DNA of 64,000 bases, from the NCBI GenBank assembly GCA_017397935.1, contig JAFQHN010000015.1:2746-66745 (forward strand), in the 5' to 3' direction. The stretch comes from Bacillota bacterium (lineage in GTDB: Bacteria; Bacillota; Dehalobacteriia; UBA4068; UBA4997). Made by a program: the position numbers and the translations under genes. Shown here piece after piece: positions 1,969 to 55,801 of the stretch (its first letter is position 1; each line of letters starts with the position of its first letter). The notes beneath the pieces are model-generated. The model was not told the DNA's origin. It was given only the letters and a program-made list of their open reading frames with translations, and searched no databases.

Positions 1969-3012
1969 TTAGTTGGCCGGAGTAACCTCGGTATCTGCTG
2001 TGGTATCGCCGTCCTCAGCGTTGGTTTCGGTATCTGCGGGAGCCTTGGCAGCATCAATCATGCTCTGAACATACTTAATGCTGTTATCGACATTGGCAGC
2101 ATTGGTGTCATCGTTAGCCATGGTGGCGCGGTAATTTTGCAGCAAGGTCAAGGCTTCGTCATAGCGTTCGCTGTTCAGCAGGAAGCTGGCCAGGCCAACA
2201 TTGGTGTTGTAATCATTGGGGGTAAGTTCCAGAGCAGCTTTGTAATACTGCTCGGCCAAATCTTTTTTGTCAATATTGAAGGCATAAGCAGCAGCTTTCT
2301 GATAATAATTGGACTTGGTAACAGCAGCTACATCATCACCGCAGTTTTCCAATGCCTGCATATACAGGTCGATAGCGGCCTGATAATCGGGGGTTAAATC
2401 AAATTTGTCATTCAGTTCACGGTGATAATAAGCCAGCGCAGCCTTGGCATCAGCCAAATCGGCCAGGATAGTCGGGTTGTTGGCATCATTAGCCAGTTCC
2501 AGGCCCAGCTCGGTTACGCGATGGTTCAAGGCGGTAATCATCCACTCGGTGGATTTAAGAGAAACACCGGTGCTGTCCGTGTCCATCAAAGCCTGTGCCT
2601 GTGCGCGCTGTGCCAGATAAGAAGCTACAATGTAAGCGTTGGCATAGGTCTTGTTTGCGTTATAGGTTTCGGTGGCCTCCAAGACCATCAAACCGTAATA
2701 TTCATCATAATATTCCAGCGCTTCATTATCAATGGCCTCAAACTCTTCTTTGGGAGCACCATCGGAACTCAAAAAAGCGGCATATTCACCCAAAATGGCG
2801 GCCAAAGCCTGAACATTAGCAGGGTCGGTCGGGTCAGCCTCATAAGCCTCGCGGGCAGAAGCAACCATTTTCTCGTAATCGGAAGCAGTATAAGTGGCGC
2901 TGCTGCCGAAGTTGCCGTAAGACATCAGCAAACCAACCAACAGCAATACAAAAACCACCAGCATTGCTACCCTGTTATTGTGTAACCATTCACGCATACC
3001 CATAATAGACAT
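1969..3012 (-). CDS. Tetratricopeptide-repeat (TPR) protein with N-terminal membrane anchor
   Basis: TPR-like repeats (AYxxLG…YxxAxxxY) through body; start placed at MSIMGM preceded by GGAGGAA RBS. Confidence 0.7.
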   Translation of the reverse strand: MSIMGMREWLHNNRVAMLVVFVLLLVGLLMSYGNFGSSATYTASDYEKMVASAREAYEADPTDPANVQALAAILGEYAAFLSSDGAPKEEFEAIDNEALEYYDEYYGLMVLEATETYNANKTYANAYIVASYLAQRAQAQALMDTDSTGVSLKSTEWMITALNHRVTELGLELANDANNPTILADLADAKAALAYYHRELNDKFDLTPDYQAAIDLYMQALENCGDDVAAVTKSNYYQKAAAYAFNIDKKDLAEQYYKAALELTPNDYNTNVGLASFLLNSERYDEALTLLQNYRATMANDDTNAANVDNSIKYVQSMIDAAKAPADTETNAEDGDTTADTEVTPAN

Positions 3013-3052
3013 CGAAAATTTCCTCCAAACAAAAAATAATTTGATAACTGAT

Positions 3053-3505
3053 TTATTTCTGCGCCGGCTCCTCATTTGAGCTTTCGGCTAAGCAATCATG
3101 GCAGATACCGAAGAAATCGGTGCGCTGACTAAAAAGTGCCCCGGGAATTTGCTCCTGTAACTCAGCGGTAAGCGGCGCAGCATAAGACGGAATATCATAG
3201 ACTCTGCCGCAGCTTTGGCAGAAGAAATGACTGTGCGGCTGTAAATTGGCATCAAAACGCGCCCCGGAACGGGTACGGGCAATTTCTCTGACCAAATCCT
3301 CCGCCAACAGCATTTGCAAATTGCGATACACCGTGCCAATGCTGATTTCGGGCAGATCCTGCCGCACAACCTCAAAAATTTCCTCGGCCGAGGGGTGGTC
3401 TTTGGAGTTTAGCAGCATATTGATAATGGCCTGCCGCTGTTTGGTCATTCTCTGAACCGAATGCGGCTTTATCGGCGGTACAGTTGGGGTGTTGGTAATA
3501 TCCAT
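3053..3505 (-). CDS. Fur-family metal-responsive transcriptional regulator (Fur/Zur/PerR; subtype not resolved)
   Basis: N-terminal winged-helix (…RQAIINMLL…HPSAEEIF…), HHFFCQSCG…CHDC metal-site motifs; RBS GAGGGA upstream of ATG. Confidence 0.75.
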   Translation of the reverse strand: MDITNTPTVPPIKPHSVQRMTKQRQAIINMLLNSKDHPSAEEIFEVVRQDLPEISIGTVYRNLQMLLAEDLVREIARTRSGARFDANLQPHSHFFCQSCGRVYDIPSYAAPLTAELQEQIPGALFSQRTDFFGICHDCLAESSNEEPAQK

Positions 3506-3515
3506 AATTCATCCC

Positions 3516-3941
3516 TCAATTTATGTATGTCGGTTCCGGCGGAGCAGATTTCTCCGGTGGGGCATCATTGGCCTCCACGATTTCCTCCTCCCCTTCCATC
3601 ATCGGGTCATAGGGGAAGATTTGTTCAAAAATCATACTCAACTGTTCAATTATGCGGCCAAAATTATATTCGGCATTCAAAAAATCATTGACTACCGGAT
3701 TCATGGCCACCGACATCATCATATCGTTGATAAAATTTTCCTGCTTTTGCAGCTCATCATCATTTTGGCAGATTTCCTGTAAATTAAACTGTTTGCGGCG
3801 GATATCCTGCAATACCTGCCTGTTGATTGGGTCATTTAACAGTCGTTCCTTGGCATCAAGATACTGATTGTATTCCGGGCAGGCACGCAACAGCTCTGCC
3901 AGATGATTGGCAGTTTGATAAATGTTTTCATGCTTGTTCAT
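3516..3941 (-). CDS. YlbF/YmcA-family (UPF0342) regulatory protein
   Basis: ~140-aa helical protein; start at MNKHENIYQ… after GAGG RBS; family-level resemblance only. Confidence 0.5.
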   Translation of the reverse strand: MNKHENIYQTANHLAELLRACPEYNQYLDAKERLLNDPINRQVLQDIRRKQFNLQEICQNDDELQKQENFINDMMMSVAMNPVVNDFLNAEYNFGRIIEQLSMIFEQIFPYDPMMEGEEEIVEANDAPPEKSAPPEPTYIN

Positions 3942-4178
3942 GCTTAAAACCTCATCACCACTATCCATAAAATTAAAACACATCTGGTTATACCGATAAA
4001 TAGTGATAACCATACATCAAATATTATACAGCATATTACTTGGTTTTGCAAATAAATTTAGTATTTTACCAAAAATTTATAAAAAATTATTCAAAAAATT
4101 GCTGTTGGCTATGTAACCAAACCCTGCCCTGCCAGATAAAATACTATATATTAAGTAAACGGCAAAAGGAGGATAAGC

Positions 4179-4757
4179 ATGAATTATCACATAATCCAGC
4201 CGGGTGACAGCCTGTGGTCAATCGCCCAAAATCATGGTTGCAGTTTGCAGGAGCTGCTGGCCGCCAATCCCCAAATCACCAATCCCAATAATATCAGCGT
4301 GGGCACCAGAATAATGCTGCCGGAGGGATGCTCGCCCGAAACCGTACCGCAGCCCCCAATGCGCCCCAATCCCATGCCCAGGCCCAATCACCAGCACGGC
4401 GGGCAAATGGGCGGGCAAAGCGGTTCGTGGCCGGCTATGCCGATGCAGGTGGAGCCTAATCAGGGGTTGACCGATATGGATGAAGCCGAGCGTGAGGAAT
4501 TGTGCGCTGAGCTTAGGAAGCTTCCCCGCCCGCTGATTTACGTTGTGAAGAAAAATGACAACATTTATCAGCTGGCCAAGTGCTTTGATTTGAGCATGAA
4601 GGAGTTGTTGCAGGTAAATCCGCAGATCCAAAATCCGGATATGATTTATCCGGGTGATAAAATCTTTGTGCCGCGCTCCCGCAGCAGCATCAATATGCAC
4701 AACCTGAATGAAGGGGGAATACGGTTTTGCCCCACCTGTGGCAGCAGGTTGAATTAA
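4179..4757 (+). CDS. Secreted/cell-wall protein with two LysM peptidoglycan-binding domains and C-terminal zinc-ribbon (CPTCGSRL)
   Basis: Two LysM motifs (GDSLWSIAQ…; NDNIYQLAK…), strong AAAGGAGG RBS. Confidence 0.75.
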   Translation: MNYHIIQPGDSLWSIAQNHGCSLQELLAANPQITNPNNISVGTRIMLPEGCSPETVPQPPMRPNPMPRPNHQHGGQMGGQSGSWPAMPMQVEPNQGLTDMDEAEREELCAELRKLPRPLIYVVKKNDNIYQLAKCFDLSMKELLQVNPQIQNPDMIYPGDKIFVPRSRSSINMHNLNEGGIRFCPTCGSRLN

Positions 4758-4812
4758 CCCAACAATGCAAAAACAAGCCGAGTGGATTCATTCGACTTGT
4801 TTTTTGCTTATA

Positions 4813-6126
4813 TTAAATTTTTTGAGAGAACTTGGCACCGCCCTCGCCAAACAGACGGTCCAGAATAATCGAAACGGCACTGCGGACAGAAAGATGGTTG
4901 TAAGCACCTGCTCCGTAAATGGGACGCAGAACATGGTCTGCTCTTGCCATCATCTCATCGGTAAGGCCCCAGCCGGTGCCGAAAAGTAAGAGATAAGGAC
5001 GGTCACTTTCGGCAATTTGGCGGCGCATTTCCGGGTAATCCACCATTTTGGGGCCGGCTTGGGCCGATGTAGCCACCAACAGCGGTTTTTGGCCGGTCTG
5101 GCGCTCAATATCAGCAATGGCCTGTTCTACGCTGTCGCAAAGCTGAATATGCCCCAATGCTTCGTGGCGGTCGGGGTTATAGCGCGCACCAAAGCCGTAC
5201 TCCCAATGCTTGACCAGAGAGCCGATAAGCTCCTTCTGGGCGGCGGCAGGCTGTACCAGATAATAACCGTCCAGCCCGAAAGTGGTGGCGGCACGGGCAA
5301 TATCGTGGATATCCAAATTGGTGACCGAGGTATTGATGACCTCATGCTTTTTGTTATAAACGGGATAATGCACCAGCGCTACCCACACACGGCTGTGGCC
5401 AGCTTTTTCGGCCTTGATACTGTCCAAAATCCGCAAATCCTCCTGCGTAAGCGGTGCTTTGGCCAGCAGCTCGGGGCGTCGCTCATAGGTACGGCGCAGG
5501 CTTTGCTCCCGGCGCCAGCGGCGGATCTCCTCATGGTTGCCGCCCTGCAAAACCTCGGGTACGGTCAGGCCGGCAAACTCCGGCGGACGGGTATACTGGG
5601 GATATTCCAGCAGACCTTCGCTGAAACTCTCCTCCTCGCTGGATTCATCATGGCCCAGGGCACCGGGCAGCAGGCGAATAATGGAATCAGCCATCACCAT
5701 GGCAGGCAGTTCTCCGCCCGTCAGCACAAAATCACCGATGGAGAAAACATCGGTGGCCAGCTGGTCTTCCACACGCTGGTCAATACCCTCATAGTGCCCG
5801 CAGATGAAAATAACCTGCTCTGCTTTGCTCAATTCCTGGGCTGCCTGCTGGTCAAAAACACGGCCGGCCGGGCTGGTGATGATAACCCGGGCGTTTTCGG
5901 TCTGCCGCAGGTCGGCAATCGCCTCAAACAGCGGCTCAGGCTTCATCACCATACCTGCCCCGCCGCCATACAGCTTATCATCGGTCAAGCCGTGTTTGGG
6001 GCCGGTGTAATCACGGATATTTTTTACATTCAAATCAATCAGTTGATTTTTTACGGCTCTGCCCACAATGCTTTGCTGCAAGGGTGCAAACATCTCCGGG
6101 AAGAGCGTCAAGATGTCGATACGCAT
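4813..6126 (-). CDS. trmD: tRNA (guanine37-N1)-methyltransferase TrmD fused to a C-terminal SpoU/TrmH-like SPOUT methyltransferase-like domain (437 aa)
   Basis: N-terminal ~245 aa is canonical TrmD (MRIDILTLFPEMF…GGGAGMVM…); C-terminal ~190 aa shows SPOUT-like motifs (LLFGTGWGLTDE…, NHLSVRSAVSIILDRL). Overlaps rimM stop; classic position after rimM. Confidence 0.85.
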   Translation of the reverse strand: MRIDILTLFPEMFAPLQQSIVGRAVKNQLIDLNVKNIRDYTGPKHGLTDDKLYGGGAGMVMKPEPLFEAIADLRQTENARVIITSPAGRVFDQQAAQELSKAEQVIFICGHYEGIDQRVEDQLATDVFSIGDFVLTGGELPAMVMADSIIRLLPGALGHDESSEEESFSEGLLEYPQYTRPPEFAGLTVPEVLQGGNHEEIRRWRREQSLRRTYERRPELLAKAPLTQEDLRILDSIKAEKAGHSRVWVALVHYPVYNKKHEVINTSVTNLDIHDIARAATTFGLDGYYLVQPAAAQKELIGSLVKHWEYGFGARYNPDRHEALGHIQLCDSVEQAIADIERQTGQKPLLVATSAQAGPKMVDYPEMRRQIAESDRPYLLLFGTGWGLTDEMMARADHVLRPIYGAGAYNHLSVRSAVSIILDRLFGEGGAKFSQKI

Positions 6127-6674
6127 TAGTCCAGCAAGCCCTCCGGAATTTTTACATCCATACGGCCGGCGGCGATGTCTACATTTAAGATGCAGCTTTT
6201 TAACGCAGGCAGCAGAATTTCGGGATACTTGGCATCCTTGGCGCCCTCGATGATGTAGACATCATTGGCACCGGTTTGCATGATCTCTGTGATAGTGCCC
6301 AACAAAACATCGTTCTCATAAACCGAGAGACCAATCAACTGGAAGTGATAATATTCGCCCTCCGGCAGCTCCGGCAGGGTGTCACGGGACACCTGCAAAT
6401 AAGTGTGCAGCAGGCTTTGCGCGGTATCGCGGTCCTCGATGCCGGAAAGTGTCAGCAGATACAGGCCTTTATGCTGGCTGCTGGCCAGAACCTCGACGGT
6501 ACGGCGCTGCTTTTCCAGATACAGTTCGGCCCCTTTAACAAAACGGGTCTCGGGGAAGTCTGTAAGAGCTGCCACCTTTACTTGGCCTTTAATACCATGG
6601 GCACCGGTAATCTCACCGACATTGATCATATCCTGCGGGGCAAATTTTTGACGGGCCAGCACTTTAATAGTCAT
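6126..6674 (-). CDS. rimM: Ribosome maturation factor RimM
   Basis: RimM N-terminal barrel plus PRC domain; between KH-protein gene and trmD. Confidence 0.9.
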   Translation of the reverse strand: MTIKVLARQKFAPQDMINVGEITGAHGIKGQVKVAALTDFPETRFVKGAELYLEKQRRTVEVLASSQHKGLYLLTLSGIEDRDTAQSLLHTYLQVSRDTLPELPEGEYYHFQLIGLSVYENDVLLGTITEIMQTGANDVYIIEGAKDAKYPEILLPALKSCILNVDIAAGRMDVKIPEGLLD

Positions 6675-6782
6675 ATAACTGCTCCTTTTTTATTATAAAT
6701 CAGCTAAAAATACAAACAGGAGAGCCTTGCGGACTCCCCTGCATGAAAAATCAATTTGTAAAATCGTCAGGGACAAGCGGCC

Positions 6783-7013
6783 TCAGACAATATCCAGATT
6801 GGCTTTTTTGCCTTCGGTCATGGCGGCAGCCTTCAAAACTGTACGCATGGCCTTGGCAATACGGCCCTGTTTGCCGATAACCTTACCCATATCTTCCTTG
6901 GCAGTATGCAGTTCCAGGTTGACGGTTTTGTTATCCTTAACGGTTTCCACAACTTCGACTGAATCAGGTTGAGTCACAAGAGATTTGGCTATGTGTTCAA
7001 TCAGTTCTTTCAT
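6783..7013 (-). CDS. KH-domain RNA-binding protein (YlqC/UPF0109 family)
   Basis: 76 aa, GKQGRIAKA KH motif; conserved position between rpsP and rimM. Confidence 0.8.
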   Translation of the reverse strand: MKELIEHIAKSLVTQPDSVEVVETVKDNKTVNLELHTAKEDMGKVIGKQGRIAKAMRTVLKAAAMTEGKKANLDIV

Positions 7014-7081: not shown

Positions 7082-7339
7082 TTATTTTGCACGCTTTGCC
7101 CAGATACCGGTAGTTTTCAGCAGCTGTTTAACGGTCTCGGACGGTTCAGCACCGGTTTGCAGCCATTTCAGAGCCTTTTCCTCGTTGATGCAAATTTCGG
7201 TGGGTTCAGCAATCGGATTGTAGTAACCGATTTCTTCGATAAAACGACCGTCACGAGGGCTGCGGGAGTCAGCTACGATAACACGGTAGAAAGGAGCCTT
7301 CTTGGCGCCCATGCGACGCAGACGAATTTTAGTTGCCAT
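7082..7339 (-). CDS. rpsP: 30S ribosomal protein S16
   Basis: [35 protein letters not shown]… canonical S16; AGGAGG RBS. Confidence 0.95.
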
Positions 7340-7407: not shown

Positions 7408-8823
7408 TTATCGGCCTAAAAACTTGGAGAATACGCTTTCAATGGTGGTGCGTCTGCTCTTGGTTTTGGTATTGCTTTTGCCCTTTTTATTGCGGGGCTT
7501 GTGGATGCGATCTGTTTTCATCATGCCGGAATCGGTCAGCTTCTTCATCACCTTGCGCATCTCATCAAACTGCTTTAACAGGCGGTTGATTTGCATAACC
7601 TGCATACCGCAGCCCTTGGCAATACGCTTTTTGCGGGAAGCATTGATGATGGAAGGATTCTGACGCTCTTCCTTGGTCATCGAGAGCACGATGGCTTCTA
7701 CACGGCGGATTTCCTTCTCGTCAATCTGCAAATCTTTCAGCTGCTTGCCCATACCGGGAATCAGCGAGAGCATTTCGCGCATATCACCCATCTTGCGGAT
7801 CTGCTGCATCTGGTCCAGAAAGTCATCCAGAGTGTAGCTGGCGGTACGCATTTTGTTTTCCAGCTCTCTGGCTTTCTGCTCATCAACACTGGCCTGAGCT
7901 TTCTCAATCAGCGTCAGCATATCACCCATGCCGAGGATTCGGGAAGCCATACGGTCGGGATAGAACAACTCCATAGCGTCCAGCTTCTCACCCATGCCGA
8001 CAAATTTAATCGGTTTGCCGGTGACGGATTTAGCCGAAAGTGCCGCGCCGCCTCGGGTATCGCCGTCCATTTTGGTCAGCACCAGGCCGTCAATCTCCAA
8101 CTGCTCGTTGAAGGTTTCGGCCACTTTAATGGCGTCCTGACCGGCCATGGCGTCAACCACCAGCAAAATTTCATGCGGCTGTACGGTTTCTTTGATGTCC
8201 TTCAATTCCTGCATCAAGGCTTCATCAATATGCAGACGGCCGGCGGTGTCGATAAGCACCATGTCATTGTTGTGGGCCTTGGCGTGTTCAACAGCCTGGC
8301 GGGCAATTTCCACGGGGCTTACCTTATCACCCAGCGAGAAAACTGCAATATCCAACTGCTCGCCCAGCACCTGCAACTGCTTGATGGCGGCCGGACGGTA
8401 AATATCGGCGGCAACCAACAGCGGACGTTTATGTTTATTCTTATAGATGTTAGCAATTTTAGCAACAGAAGTGGTCTTACCGGAGCCTTGCAAACCGGCC
8501 ATCATGATAATCGTGGGCGGCTTGCTGGCCATATTGATGGAGGATTGCTCCGAACCCATCAGGATGGTCAATTCCTCCTGCACAATTTTTACAACCTGCT
8601 GTCCGGGAGTAAGACTCTCCAAAATATCAGCGCCAAGTGCGCGCTCTTTAACGGTGGCCACAAAATCCTTAACAACTTTGTAGCTGACGTCGGCTTCCAG
8701 CAGAGCCATACGCACGGTTCGCATTGCCTCGTTAATATCTGCCTCGGTCAGCTTGCCCTTGCCGGTCAGCTTCTTAAAAGTGTCCTGCAATTTATCTGCC
8801 AAGCTGCTGAAAACTGCCATCAT
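7408..8823 (-). CDS. ffh: Signal recognition particle protein Ffh (SRP54)
   Basis: N, G (GLQGSGKTT, DTAGR) and M domains; C-terminal basic tail. Confidence 0.95.
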   Translation of the reverse strand: MMAVFSSLADKLQDTFKKLTGKGKLTEADINEAMRTVRMALLEADVSYKVVKDFVATVKERALGADILESLTPGQQVVKIVQEELTILMGSEQSSINMASKPPTIIMMAGLQGSGKTTSVAKIANIYKNKHKRPLLVAADIYRPAAIKQLQVLGEQLDIAVFSLGDKVSPVEIARQAVEHAKAHNNDMVLIDTAGRLHIDEALMQELKDIKETVQPHEILLVVDAMAGQDAIKVAETFNEQLEIDGLVLTKMDGDTRGGAALSAKSVTGKPIKFVGMGEKLDAMELFYPDRMASRILGMGDMLTLIEKAQASVDEQKARELENKMRTASYTLDDFLDQMQQIRKMGDMREMLSLIPGMGKQLKDLQIDEKEIRRVEAIVLSMTKEERQNPSIINASRKKRIAKGCGMQVMQINRLLKQFDEMRKVMKKLTDSGMMKTDRIHKPRNKKGKSNTKTKSRRTTIESVFSKFLGR

Positions 8824-8852: not shown

Positions 8853-9203
8853 TTATGCGTTTTGGGGTTCATTATTGCCGTTTATCAGTTGGCCCAATTC
8901 ATCGCAGGCAGCCTTAACCAGCGCCCAGCTTTGTTCGGCCTCGGCCTGCTGCAAGTTCTGCAATATCAGGCGCTCCCGGCGGTTTTTGGCAATCAGCCCC
9001 AACTTCTCGTCGTAGTTTTGCAGCAATTCTTCTCCACGGCGGATAGAATCGAAAACGGCCTGACGGCTGATATTAAGCATGGCGGCAATTTCACCCAGAG
9101 AATAATCCTCATTATAAGTAAGTGCCAAAGCCTGCTGCTGCTTATCCGTCAGCAAGCAGCCGTAAACATCAAACAGCAAAAGCTTTATGCCCAGCTTATC
9201 CAT
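8853..9203 (-). CDS. ylxM: YlxM/UPF0122 small helix-turn-helix protein (SRP-operon associated)
   Basis: Sigma-70 region-4-like HTH (…LSLGEIAAMLNISRQAV…); immediately upstream of ffh; start set at MDKLG with GAGGT RBS. Confidence 0.75.
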   Translation of the reverse strand: MDKLGIKLLLFDVYGCLLTDKQQQALALTYNEDYSLGEIAAMLNISRQAVFDSIRRGEELLQNYDEKLGLIAKNRRERLILQNLQQAEAEQSWALVKAACDELGQLINGNNEPQNA

Positions 9204-9321
9204 GGTTTCAACCTCATTCCGTGCTATCAAGTTTTTCAACTTGACACATTCAACTTGCTTATTATACAACAGCCTCCATGTTCTGTCAAGGGTTTTTGCT
9301 TAACATCCAACATTTTTTTTC

Positions 9322-54753: not shown

Positions 54754-54842
54754 GGAGCGGTATCGAAGTGGTCATAACGAGCCTGACTCGAAATCAGGTG
54801 TACCTCACGGTACCGTGGGTTCGAATCCCACCCGCTCCGCCA
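54754..54842 (+). tRNA. tRNA-Ser (anticodon CGA), long variable arm, encoded CCA
   Basis: GGAGCGG…anticodon loop CTCGAAA…long variable arm GTACCTCACGGTACCGT…GTTCGAATC…CCGCTCCGCCA. Confidence 0.85.
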
Positions 54843-55519: not shown

Positions 55520-55801
55520 CTGACTAAATGCGGTGAGCAGAACTAAGTAAGCTTGGAAAGAGCTTGAAGAGAGTTGCCGGATGGTGCAAGGCAATGGCGA
55601 TGACCATGACGAATTCCTTCTGTTAGCAGTGCGCTGAACAAGAGAAATCTTAAGTAGGAGGCAACGGGAGTTCCCGTTACAGAACTAGGGTATGTTAGTA
55701 CCTGATAAGGTTGCTGTCGTGAGGTAGTGACAAACTGAGGTGGTACCACGGAAATGTTTTTTCGTCCTCTGTATCTTGTTTAAGATGCAGAGGATTTTTT
55801 T
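55520..55801 (+). promoter_or_regulatory. T-box-like riboswitch (tRNA-sensing leader) ending in intrinsic terminator
   Basis: AGAGAG stem-I-like element at 55566-55573; T-box-like box AAACUGAGGUGGUACCACGG at 55731-55750 (consensus AAUUAGGGUGGNACCGCGG); terminator CCUCUG…CAGAGG plus U7 at 55765-55801 overlapping the box. Confidence 0.6.

Follow-up and report, generated by a model that had tools for sequence, protein, structure and literature searches.

The locus examined here raises the question of whether a trmD gene that encodes 437 amino acids instead of the usual ~240 is real and, if so, what its additional C-terminal region does. The gene lies in a 64-kb stretch of DNA, the whole of which we refer to as the window, from an uncultured Peptococcaceae-like member of the Bacillota. 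An earlier note, made from the letters of this DNA, had described it as TrmD fused in frame to a second SPOUT-like methyltransferase domain. The open reading frame has exactly the length and position given there (4813 to 6126, minus strand). It begins with ATG and continues in a single frame without an internal stop, as seen both in the list of open reading frames and by reading the sequence, and its translation contains all four of the motifs that had been quoted (VALVHYPVYN, TSVTNLDIHDIAR, LLFGTGWGLTDE, and NHLSVRSAVSIILDRL). The start codon agrees with that of homologs, which open with MRIDILTLFP. We conclude that the product is very probably a genuine TrmD-Tm1570 (PF01746-PF09936) doubly knotted SPOUT methyltransferase, a reading that includes a proposed 2'-O-methyltransferase activity of the C-terminal domain.

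This architecture is catalogued in Pfam and was described in 2007. In that year, TrmD was reported to be fused to a COG4752 SPOUT domain in three deltaproteobacterial sources (Desulfovibrio vulgaris, Lawsonia, and one described only as a deltaproteobacterium), and a conserved Arg and a conserved Ser, at positions typical of 2'-O-methyltransferases, led to the prediction that COG4752 is a 2'-O-ribose methyltransferase (Tkaczuk et al. 2007, PMC1829167). For D. vulgaris DVU0836 and Lawsonia LI0220, a literature search for functional or fitness data returned only that 2007 bioinformatics paper. Later work counted 66 TrmD-Tm1570 proteins in Pfam and distinguished four arrangements of the two genes: distant, adjacent, overlapping, and fused (Perlinska et al. 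2024, PMC11187310). Since 2022-2024, the fusion has been a model doubly knotted protein. The crystal structure of the Calditerrivibrio nitroreducens protein (PDB 8B1N) has a trefoil knot in each domain (3_1#3_1), with knot cores at residues 85-129 and 352-397, and contains SAM and Mg2+ in the TrmD site and SAM in the Tm1570 site (da Silva et al. 2023, bioRxiv 10.1101/2023.03.13.532328). The protein is a homodimer that methylates tRNA-Leu(CAG) in vitro in a G37-dependent manner (PMC11187310), and in the dimer the TrmD interface is antiparallel while the Tm1570 interface is perpendicular (PMC11187310; bioRxiv 10.1101/2023.03.13.532328). The interpretation given in the earlier note is supported. 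Because the fusion has already been described, crystallized, and partly assayed, the gene in the window is an ordinary new example of it.

The two domains form a single unbroken polypeptide in which TrmD is N-terminal. The parts of the gene are as follows:

4813 to 6126, minus strand: trmD-Tm1570 fusion gene, 437 codons plus the stop codon at 4813-4815 (list of open reading frames)
5407 to 6126, minus strand: TrmD part, residues 1-240, comprising the SPOUT catalytic domain and the C-terminal tRNA-binding helical domain (Pfam, NCBIfam)
5746 to 5880, minus strand: putative first trefoil knot core, residues ~83-127, with the cover loop S85-G88 and the wall loop G110-I115 (alignment to 8B1N residues 85-129)
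5389 to 5463, minus strand: poorly conserved interdomain linker, residues ~222-246 (alignment identity, dN/dS)
4846 to 5388, minus strand: Tm1570-type SPOUT domain (PF09936), residues 247-427
4933 to 5079, minus strand: putative second trefoil knot core, residues ~350-398, with SAM-site residues S354, A355, G383, and L388 (alignment to 8B1N residues 352-397)

The N-terminal half is assigned to the TrmD family by curated equivalog cutoffs over the full length of the model. It scored 317 bits against the NCBIfam equivalog NF000648 (cutoff, 220; profile positions 1-221 of 221) and 304 bits against TIGR00088 (cutoff, 195), and residues 22-218 (positions 5473..6063) matched Pfam PF01746, tRNA_m1G_MT, with 212 bits (cutoff, 27.3; E = 7e-63). 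The N-terminal 240 residues also match canonical TrmD structures from Escherichia coli (1P9P), Haemophilus influenzae (4YVI), and Staphylococcus aureus (3KY7), with E values of 1e-70 to 3e-88. When aligned with HMMER to 8B1N, the Mg2+ ligands E113, E165, E166, and E174 are identical to their counterparts (E115, E167, E168, and E176) at all four positions. The SAM contacts, among them G110, I130, G131, F133, L135, and S167 (G112, I132, G133, F135, I137, and S169 in 8B1N), are identical at six of seven positions, and the remaining one is a conservative replacement. The SAM-binding loops S85-P-A-G88, G110-H-Y-E-G-I115, and S129-I-G-D-F-V-L-T-G137 map one to one onto those of 8B1N; the cover, wall, and bottom loops are conserved, and most of the knot-loop and acidic residues are invariant in 60 homologs. 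One departure is in the tRNA-contacting motif, where SGNH is replaced by GGNH, with G196 and H198 invariant.

What sets the protein apart from canonical TrmD is a C-terminal SPOUT domain of about 195 residues. The earlier note had proposed a second SPOUT-like domain after TrmD, and Pfam bore this out: residues 247-427 matched PF09936, Methyltrn_RNA_4, with E = 6e-79 and 264.6 bits (cutoff, 22.6) over profile positions 2-182 of 182. This score and those of the TrmD half are well outside what chance would give. By this match above the gathering score, the C-terminal half is classified as a full-length member of PF09936/COG4752, a family with the Pfam title "SAM-dependent RNA methyltransferase." Alignment to 8B1N places S354, A355, G383, L388, I403, N410, L412, and I421 at the SAM contacts T356, A357, G382, F387, I402, residue 409, L411, and Y420. 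Five of these eight are identical and the rest are conservative changes, plus the replacement of Y420 by I421. For residue 409, the paper prints I409, and the deposited chain has N. Among 60 fused homologs, the SAM-pocket residues A355, G383, and L412 are invariant, as are N270, D272, H274, D275, R278, G383-T-G385, P402, Y404, G405, and H411-L-S-V-R415 in the domain as a whole. From motif comparison and the description in PMC1829167, R278 (in HDIAR) and S413 (in NHLSVRSA) are likely candidates for the equivalents of the catalytic Arg (R41 of TrmH) and the motif 3 Ser, respectively.

The domain is related to the SpoU class without belonging to it by sequence. Matches to SpoU_methylase PF00588 (E = 2.6e-5; 24.8 bits against a cutoff of 29.7), to the TrmJ/YjtD subfamily TIGR00050 (E = 2.9e-5; 24 bits against 167), and to the TrmJ equivalogs (12-19 bits against 280-350) all fell below the curated cutoffs. 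Scores so far below those of the SpoU and TrmJ models indicate a separate family, related but not a member, and in this respect the domain differs from TrmJ, TrmH, and TrmL.

Structural comparisons agree with these assignments. The best match of the whole protein among solved structures was 8b1n_A (436 residues), collinear over residues 2-425 (E = 1.6e-130), and the two proteins are 46% identical in each domain. They share domain order and are of nearly equal length (433-436 versus 437 residues), but identity is limited to that 46% and the hosts belong to different phyla, Deferribacterota for C. nitroreducens and Bacillota for the window. The SAM pocket of the C-terminal domain also differs at three positions (T356 to S354, F387 to L388, and Y420 to I421), besides the SGNH-to-GGNH change. 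The C-terminal half alone matched Thermotoga maritima TM1570 (3DCM) over its full length (E = 2e-56). That protein is the founding stand-alone member of PF09936/COG4752, in contrast to the fused counterpart in the window; its gene is distinct from trmD, the two overlapping by 7 nt (PMC11187310). In a Foldseek search, an AF2 model of the full protein as a monomer (60-sequence alignment; pLDDT, 81.9) came closest to 8b1n, the match extending over 426 columns. The AF2 models can be superposed on 8B1N and 3DCM and so contain two SPOUT alpha/beta folds; by analogy with the ortholog, we infer a deep trefoil knot in each domain (3_1#3_1). The presence of two knotted SPOUT domains per chain is a feature shared with tandem-SPOUT proteins (PF00588-PF00588 and Nep1-Nep1). 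Those proteins, however, are products of duplication and are able to form a pseudo-dimer within one chain, whereas TrmD-Tm1570 combines domains from two different families and functions as a homodimer, its monomer adopting an "open" conformation.

A long reading frame of this kind could also be an artifact, in which a frameshift from sequencing or assembly, or the loss of a stop codon, has made one gene of trmD and an adjacent TM1570-like gene. The idea draws on real arrangements: many other lineages keep trmD and the Tm1570 gene apart, as neighbors or with an overlap (17 of 80 loci), and in two loci (L006 and L007) a single in-frame TAG parts trmD from the Tm1570 gene. Against it, the identical 437-residue protein is encoded, with the same neighbors, on seven separately assembled Logan and ENA contigs, one of which is a 117.6-kb ENA scaffold and another of which comes from a Logan assembly. 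The best 120 clusters of homologs (clustered at 90% identity; 55-99% identical to the window protein; 382-466 residues) share the fused length, and all 120 carry both Pfam domains. Five orthologs in reference genomes, including the complete chromosome of Ca. Formimonas warabiya, have an uninterrupted full-length frame, and in a sixth (L008), which lies on a truncated contig, the frame is open as far as the contig reaches. GC content is even across the domain junction, and a fused ortholog has been expressed and crystallized (8B1N). The earlier note had named a frameshift or sequencing error as what would undo its claim; we looked for one and excluded it, as far as sequence allows, on the evidence of the homologs, the open frames, the contigs, and the GC content, so that a chimera has next to no chance of being the explanation.

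Selection acts on both parts of this genuine fusion. Compared with the two closest orthologs, dN/dS was about 0.05-0.06 in the TrmD core and 0.10-0.15 in the Tm1570 domain, ratios that are rough because dS is saturated, although pN was still far below pS in both domains. On these estimates, both domains are under purifying selection. The 25-residue linker between them, with a dN/dS of 0.2-0.8, is far less constrained than the domains, and its mean identity in the alignment (A2) is 0.36, compared with 0.69 and 0.61 in the two domains.

The distribution of arrangements was obtained by a frame check of 80 reference-genome loci that had been retrieved with the window protein:

6 of 80 loci: true single-frame fusion, all in Bacillota (Peptococcaceae-like MAGs with about 80% identity, Ca. 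Formimonas, and a Clostridiales MAG)
17 of 80 loci: trmD and Tm1570 gene adjacent or overlapping as separate open reading frames (Pelosinus, Sporomusa, Orenia, Geobacterales, Nitrospiraceae, Cloacimonadota, Desulfobacterota, Methylomirabilota, Syntrophomonadaceae, BRC1, and Nitrospinota)
3 of 80 loci: Tm1570 gene farther off in the flank (Ilyobacter and Cetobacterium; L052, L060, and L061)
54 of 80 loci: trmD only

A count of 24 fusions, based on tblastn matches to residues 1-428, was rejected when the frame check reduced it to the six listed. The series agrees with the evolutionary series of Perlinska et al. Within a broad Peptococcaceae-like clade of Bacillota, the fusion is fixed, over the 55-99% identity range of the homolog clusters, and is subject to purifying selection. 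In the BRC1 MAG (L006, positions 4730-4741) and the Nitrospinota MAG (L007, positions 3224-3226), a lone TAG codon divides trmD from a Tm1570 gene that is in frame with it, and in L006 an ATG comes 6 nt after the TAG. One point mutation would fuse the genes, and these arrangements look like natural intermediates. At the three fusobacterial loci (L052, L060, and L061), the Tm1570-type gene is on the strand of trmD but 0.5-1 kb downstream, a distance at which another open reading frame probably lies between the two; the linkage to trmD has been loosened in some lineages.

With 46% identity and conserved active-site residues, the functions of the C. nitroreducens ortholog can be transferred provisionally to the window protein. 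It would form a homodimer with antiparallel TrmD domains and perpendicular Tm1570 domains. With SAM and Mg2+, the N-terminal domain would methylate G37 at N1 in tRNAs with G36-G37, which would be the essential frameshift-suppressing function of TrmD, and the C-terminal domain would bind another SAM molecule within the trefoil knot that it forms. As for what it does with this SAM, the model of the C-terminal domain is structurally similar to the SpoU/TrmH/TrmJ catalytic domain, and its characterized structural neighbors are all 2'-O-ribose methyltransferases (TrmJ, 16.3; TrmH, 15.3; AviRb, 14.0; TrmL, 13.1; RlmB, 12.8), with two TrmJ structures among them (4cnf, 16.3; 5gra, 15.0). The weak SpoU_methylase and TrmJ/YjtD sequence matches point in the same direction. 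SpoU-class enzymes modify tRNA at several positions: TrmJ makes Cm32/Um32, TrmH makes Gm18, and TrmL makes Nm34. The C-terminal domain may be an active SpoU-class RNA 2'-O-ribose methyltransferase whose substrate is most probably tRNA, and its fusion or tight adjacency to TrmD may couple its expression, and perhaps the delivery of substrate, to that of TrmD. We suggest tentatively, as a possibility held with low confidence, that the Tm1570 domain adds an as yet unassigned modification, most plausibly a 2'-O-methyl group in or near the anticodon loop, to the tRNAs handled by TrmD.

Two other roles can be set against this proposal. One is that the Tm1570 domain is not an enzyme but an accessory module that modulates TrmD through RNA binding, dimer stabilization, or SAM sensing. 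When assayed in vitro without Tm1570, the TrmD domain of the C. nitroreducens protein retained 86% of the activity of the fusion, while the isolated Tm1570 domain, tested on a tRNA-Leu transcript, reached 18 +/- 9% of the fusion signal, a level regarded by the authors as comparable to the no-SAM control; they suggested that Tm1570 may aid substrate binding or stability (PMC11187310). Our literature search returned no assigned function or catalytic activity for PF09936, COG4752, or TM1570, and a preprint of February 2026 still calls the function unclear. However, the SAM-pocket residues and the Arg and Ser motifs (R278 and H411-L-S-V-R415) are invariant in the 60 homologs, dN/dS of the domain is about 0.1, and SAM is bound in the crystal (8B1N). 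Stand-alone Tm1570 genes also exist, some of them away from trmD (L052, L060, and L061; Aquifex, PMC11187310), which argues for an autonomous function. A purely accessory role is, in our judgment, quite unlikely.

The other is a variant of our main model, in which the domain is an active 2'-O-methyltransferase whose target is rRNA (e.g., 16S rRNA during 30S maturation) and not tRNA. The gene sits within an rpsP-khpA-rimM cluster of 30S-assembly genes, and several close structural neighbors of the domain are rRNA 2'-O-methyltransferases (AviRb, NHR, RlmB, YsgA, and MRM3). Yet its top characterized neighbors, TrmJ and TrmH, are tRNA enzymes, the fusion partner is itself a tRNA enzyme, and the activity of the fusion on G37-mutated tRNA was reportedly at least twice that of the control, a weak hint of activity on tRNA (PMC11187310). 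An rRNA target is a minority possibility that we consider rather improbable. If modification of tRNA by the Tm1570 domain is borne out, TrmD-Tm1570 would be a two-step modification machine, one dimer passing a tRNA between two knotted active sites, and the Bacillota clade, in which the fusion is fixed over wide divergence, would be a promising group in which to look for the target. What interest remains lies in the function of PF09936/Tm1570, a conserved SAM-binding, SpoU-like methyltransferase domain that several phyla tie genetically to the essential TrmD; the window offers no special handle on the question of its substrate. The tRNA genes of the window were considered as TrmD substrates and rejected, because none of them (Gly-CCC, Thr-CGT, and Ser-CGA) is relevant.

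As with canonical trmD, the gene is downstream of rimM. The rimM-trmD arrangement proposed in the earlier note was confirmed by Pfam and by the sequence, and upstream of the fusion gene is the standard trmD neighborhood:

6126 to 6674, minus strand: rimM, immediately upstream (Pfam RimM and PRC barrel)
6783 to 7013, minus strand: khpA-type KH gene (Pfam)
7082 to 7339, minus strand: rpsP (Pfam)
7408 to 8823, minus strand: ffh (Pfam)
8853 to 9269, minus strand: ylxM (Pfam)
4779 to 4804, plus strand: terminator-like hairpin and T-run on the other side of the fusion gene (consensus scan and sequence; a pattern match only)

Read directly, positions 6124-6128 are TAATG, in which the TAA stop codon of rimM overlaps the ATG of the fusion gene, an overlap that suggests translational coupling of the two genes. 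Before the GTG codons at residues ~245-247, inspection by eye found no convincing Shine-Dalgarno sequence for an internal start that would yield a separate Tm1570 product. Between the khpA-type KH gene and rimM there is a strong terminator-like hairpin (6716..6742, minus strand; 11 pairs, 6 of them GC, then a T-run), which could, as a pattern match, be an internal attenuator that lowers expression of rimM-trmD relative to rpsP. An antisense open reading frame of 370 residues with a TTG start (5017..6129, plus strand) spans nearly the whole fusion gene and is most likely a noncoding shadow of a GC-rich coding region.

The other flank departs from the usual order. The gene for ribosomal protein L19, rplS, normally comes directly after trmD, but it was not found anywhere in the 64-kb window. 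Its place downstream of the fusion gene is taken by a convergent gene that encodes two LysM domains (4179..4757, plus strand), beyond which lies a ylbF/ymcA-like gene (3516..4013, minus strand). The hairpin at 4779..4804 falls within the 55 nt that separate the LysM gene from the fusion gene, and it could serve both strands, given the A-run on its 5' side. This rearrangement without rplS is common to the two closest relatives (L001 and L002, about 80% identity), while rplS is kept right after the gene in more distant carriers of the fusion or operon (L003, L004, L012-L014, L016, and L077). Beyond the ylbF-like gene, a Fur-family regulator gene (3053..3505, minus strand) overlaps by 23 nt the start of a gene for a 368-residue TPR-repeat protein (1969..3075, minus strand); both appear unrelated to the fusion. 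Elsewhere in the window, a T-box leader (55524..55772, plus strand) scored 104 bits in Rfam, above the gathering score, and lies ~700 nt downstream of the tRNA-Ser(CGA) gene (54754..54842, plus strand).
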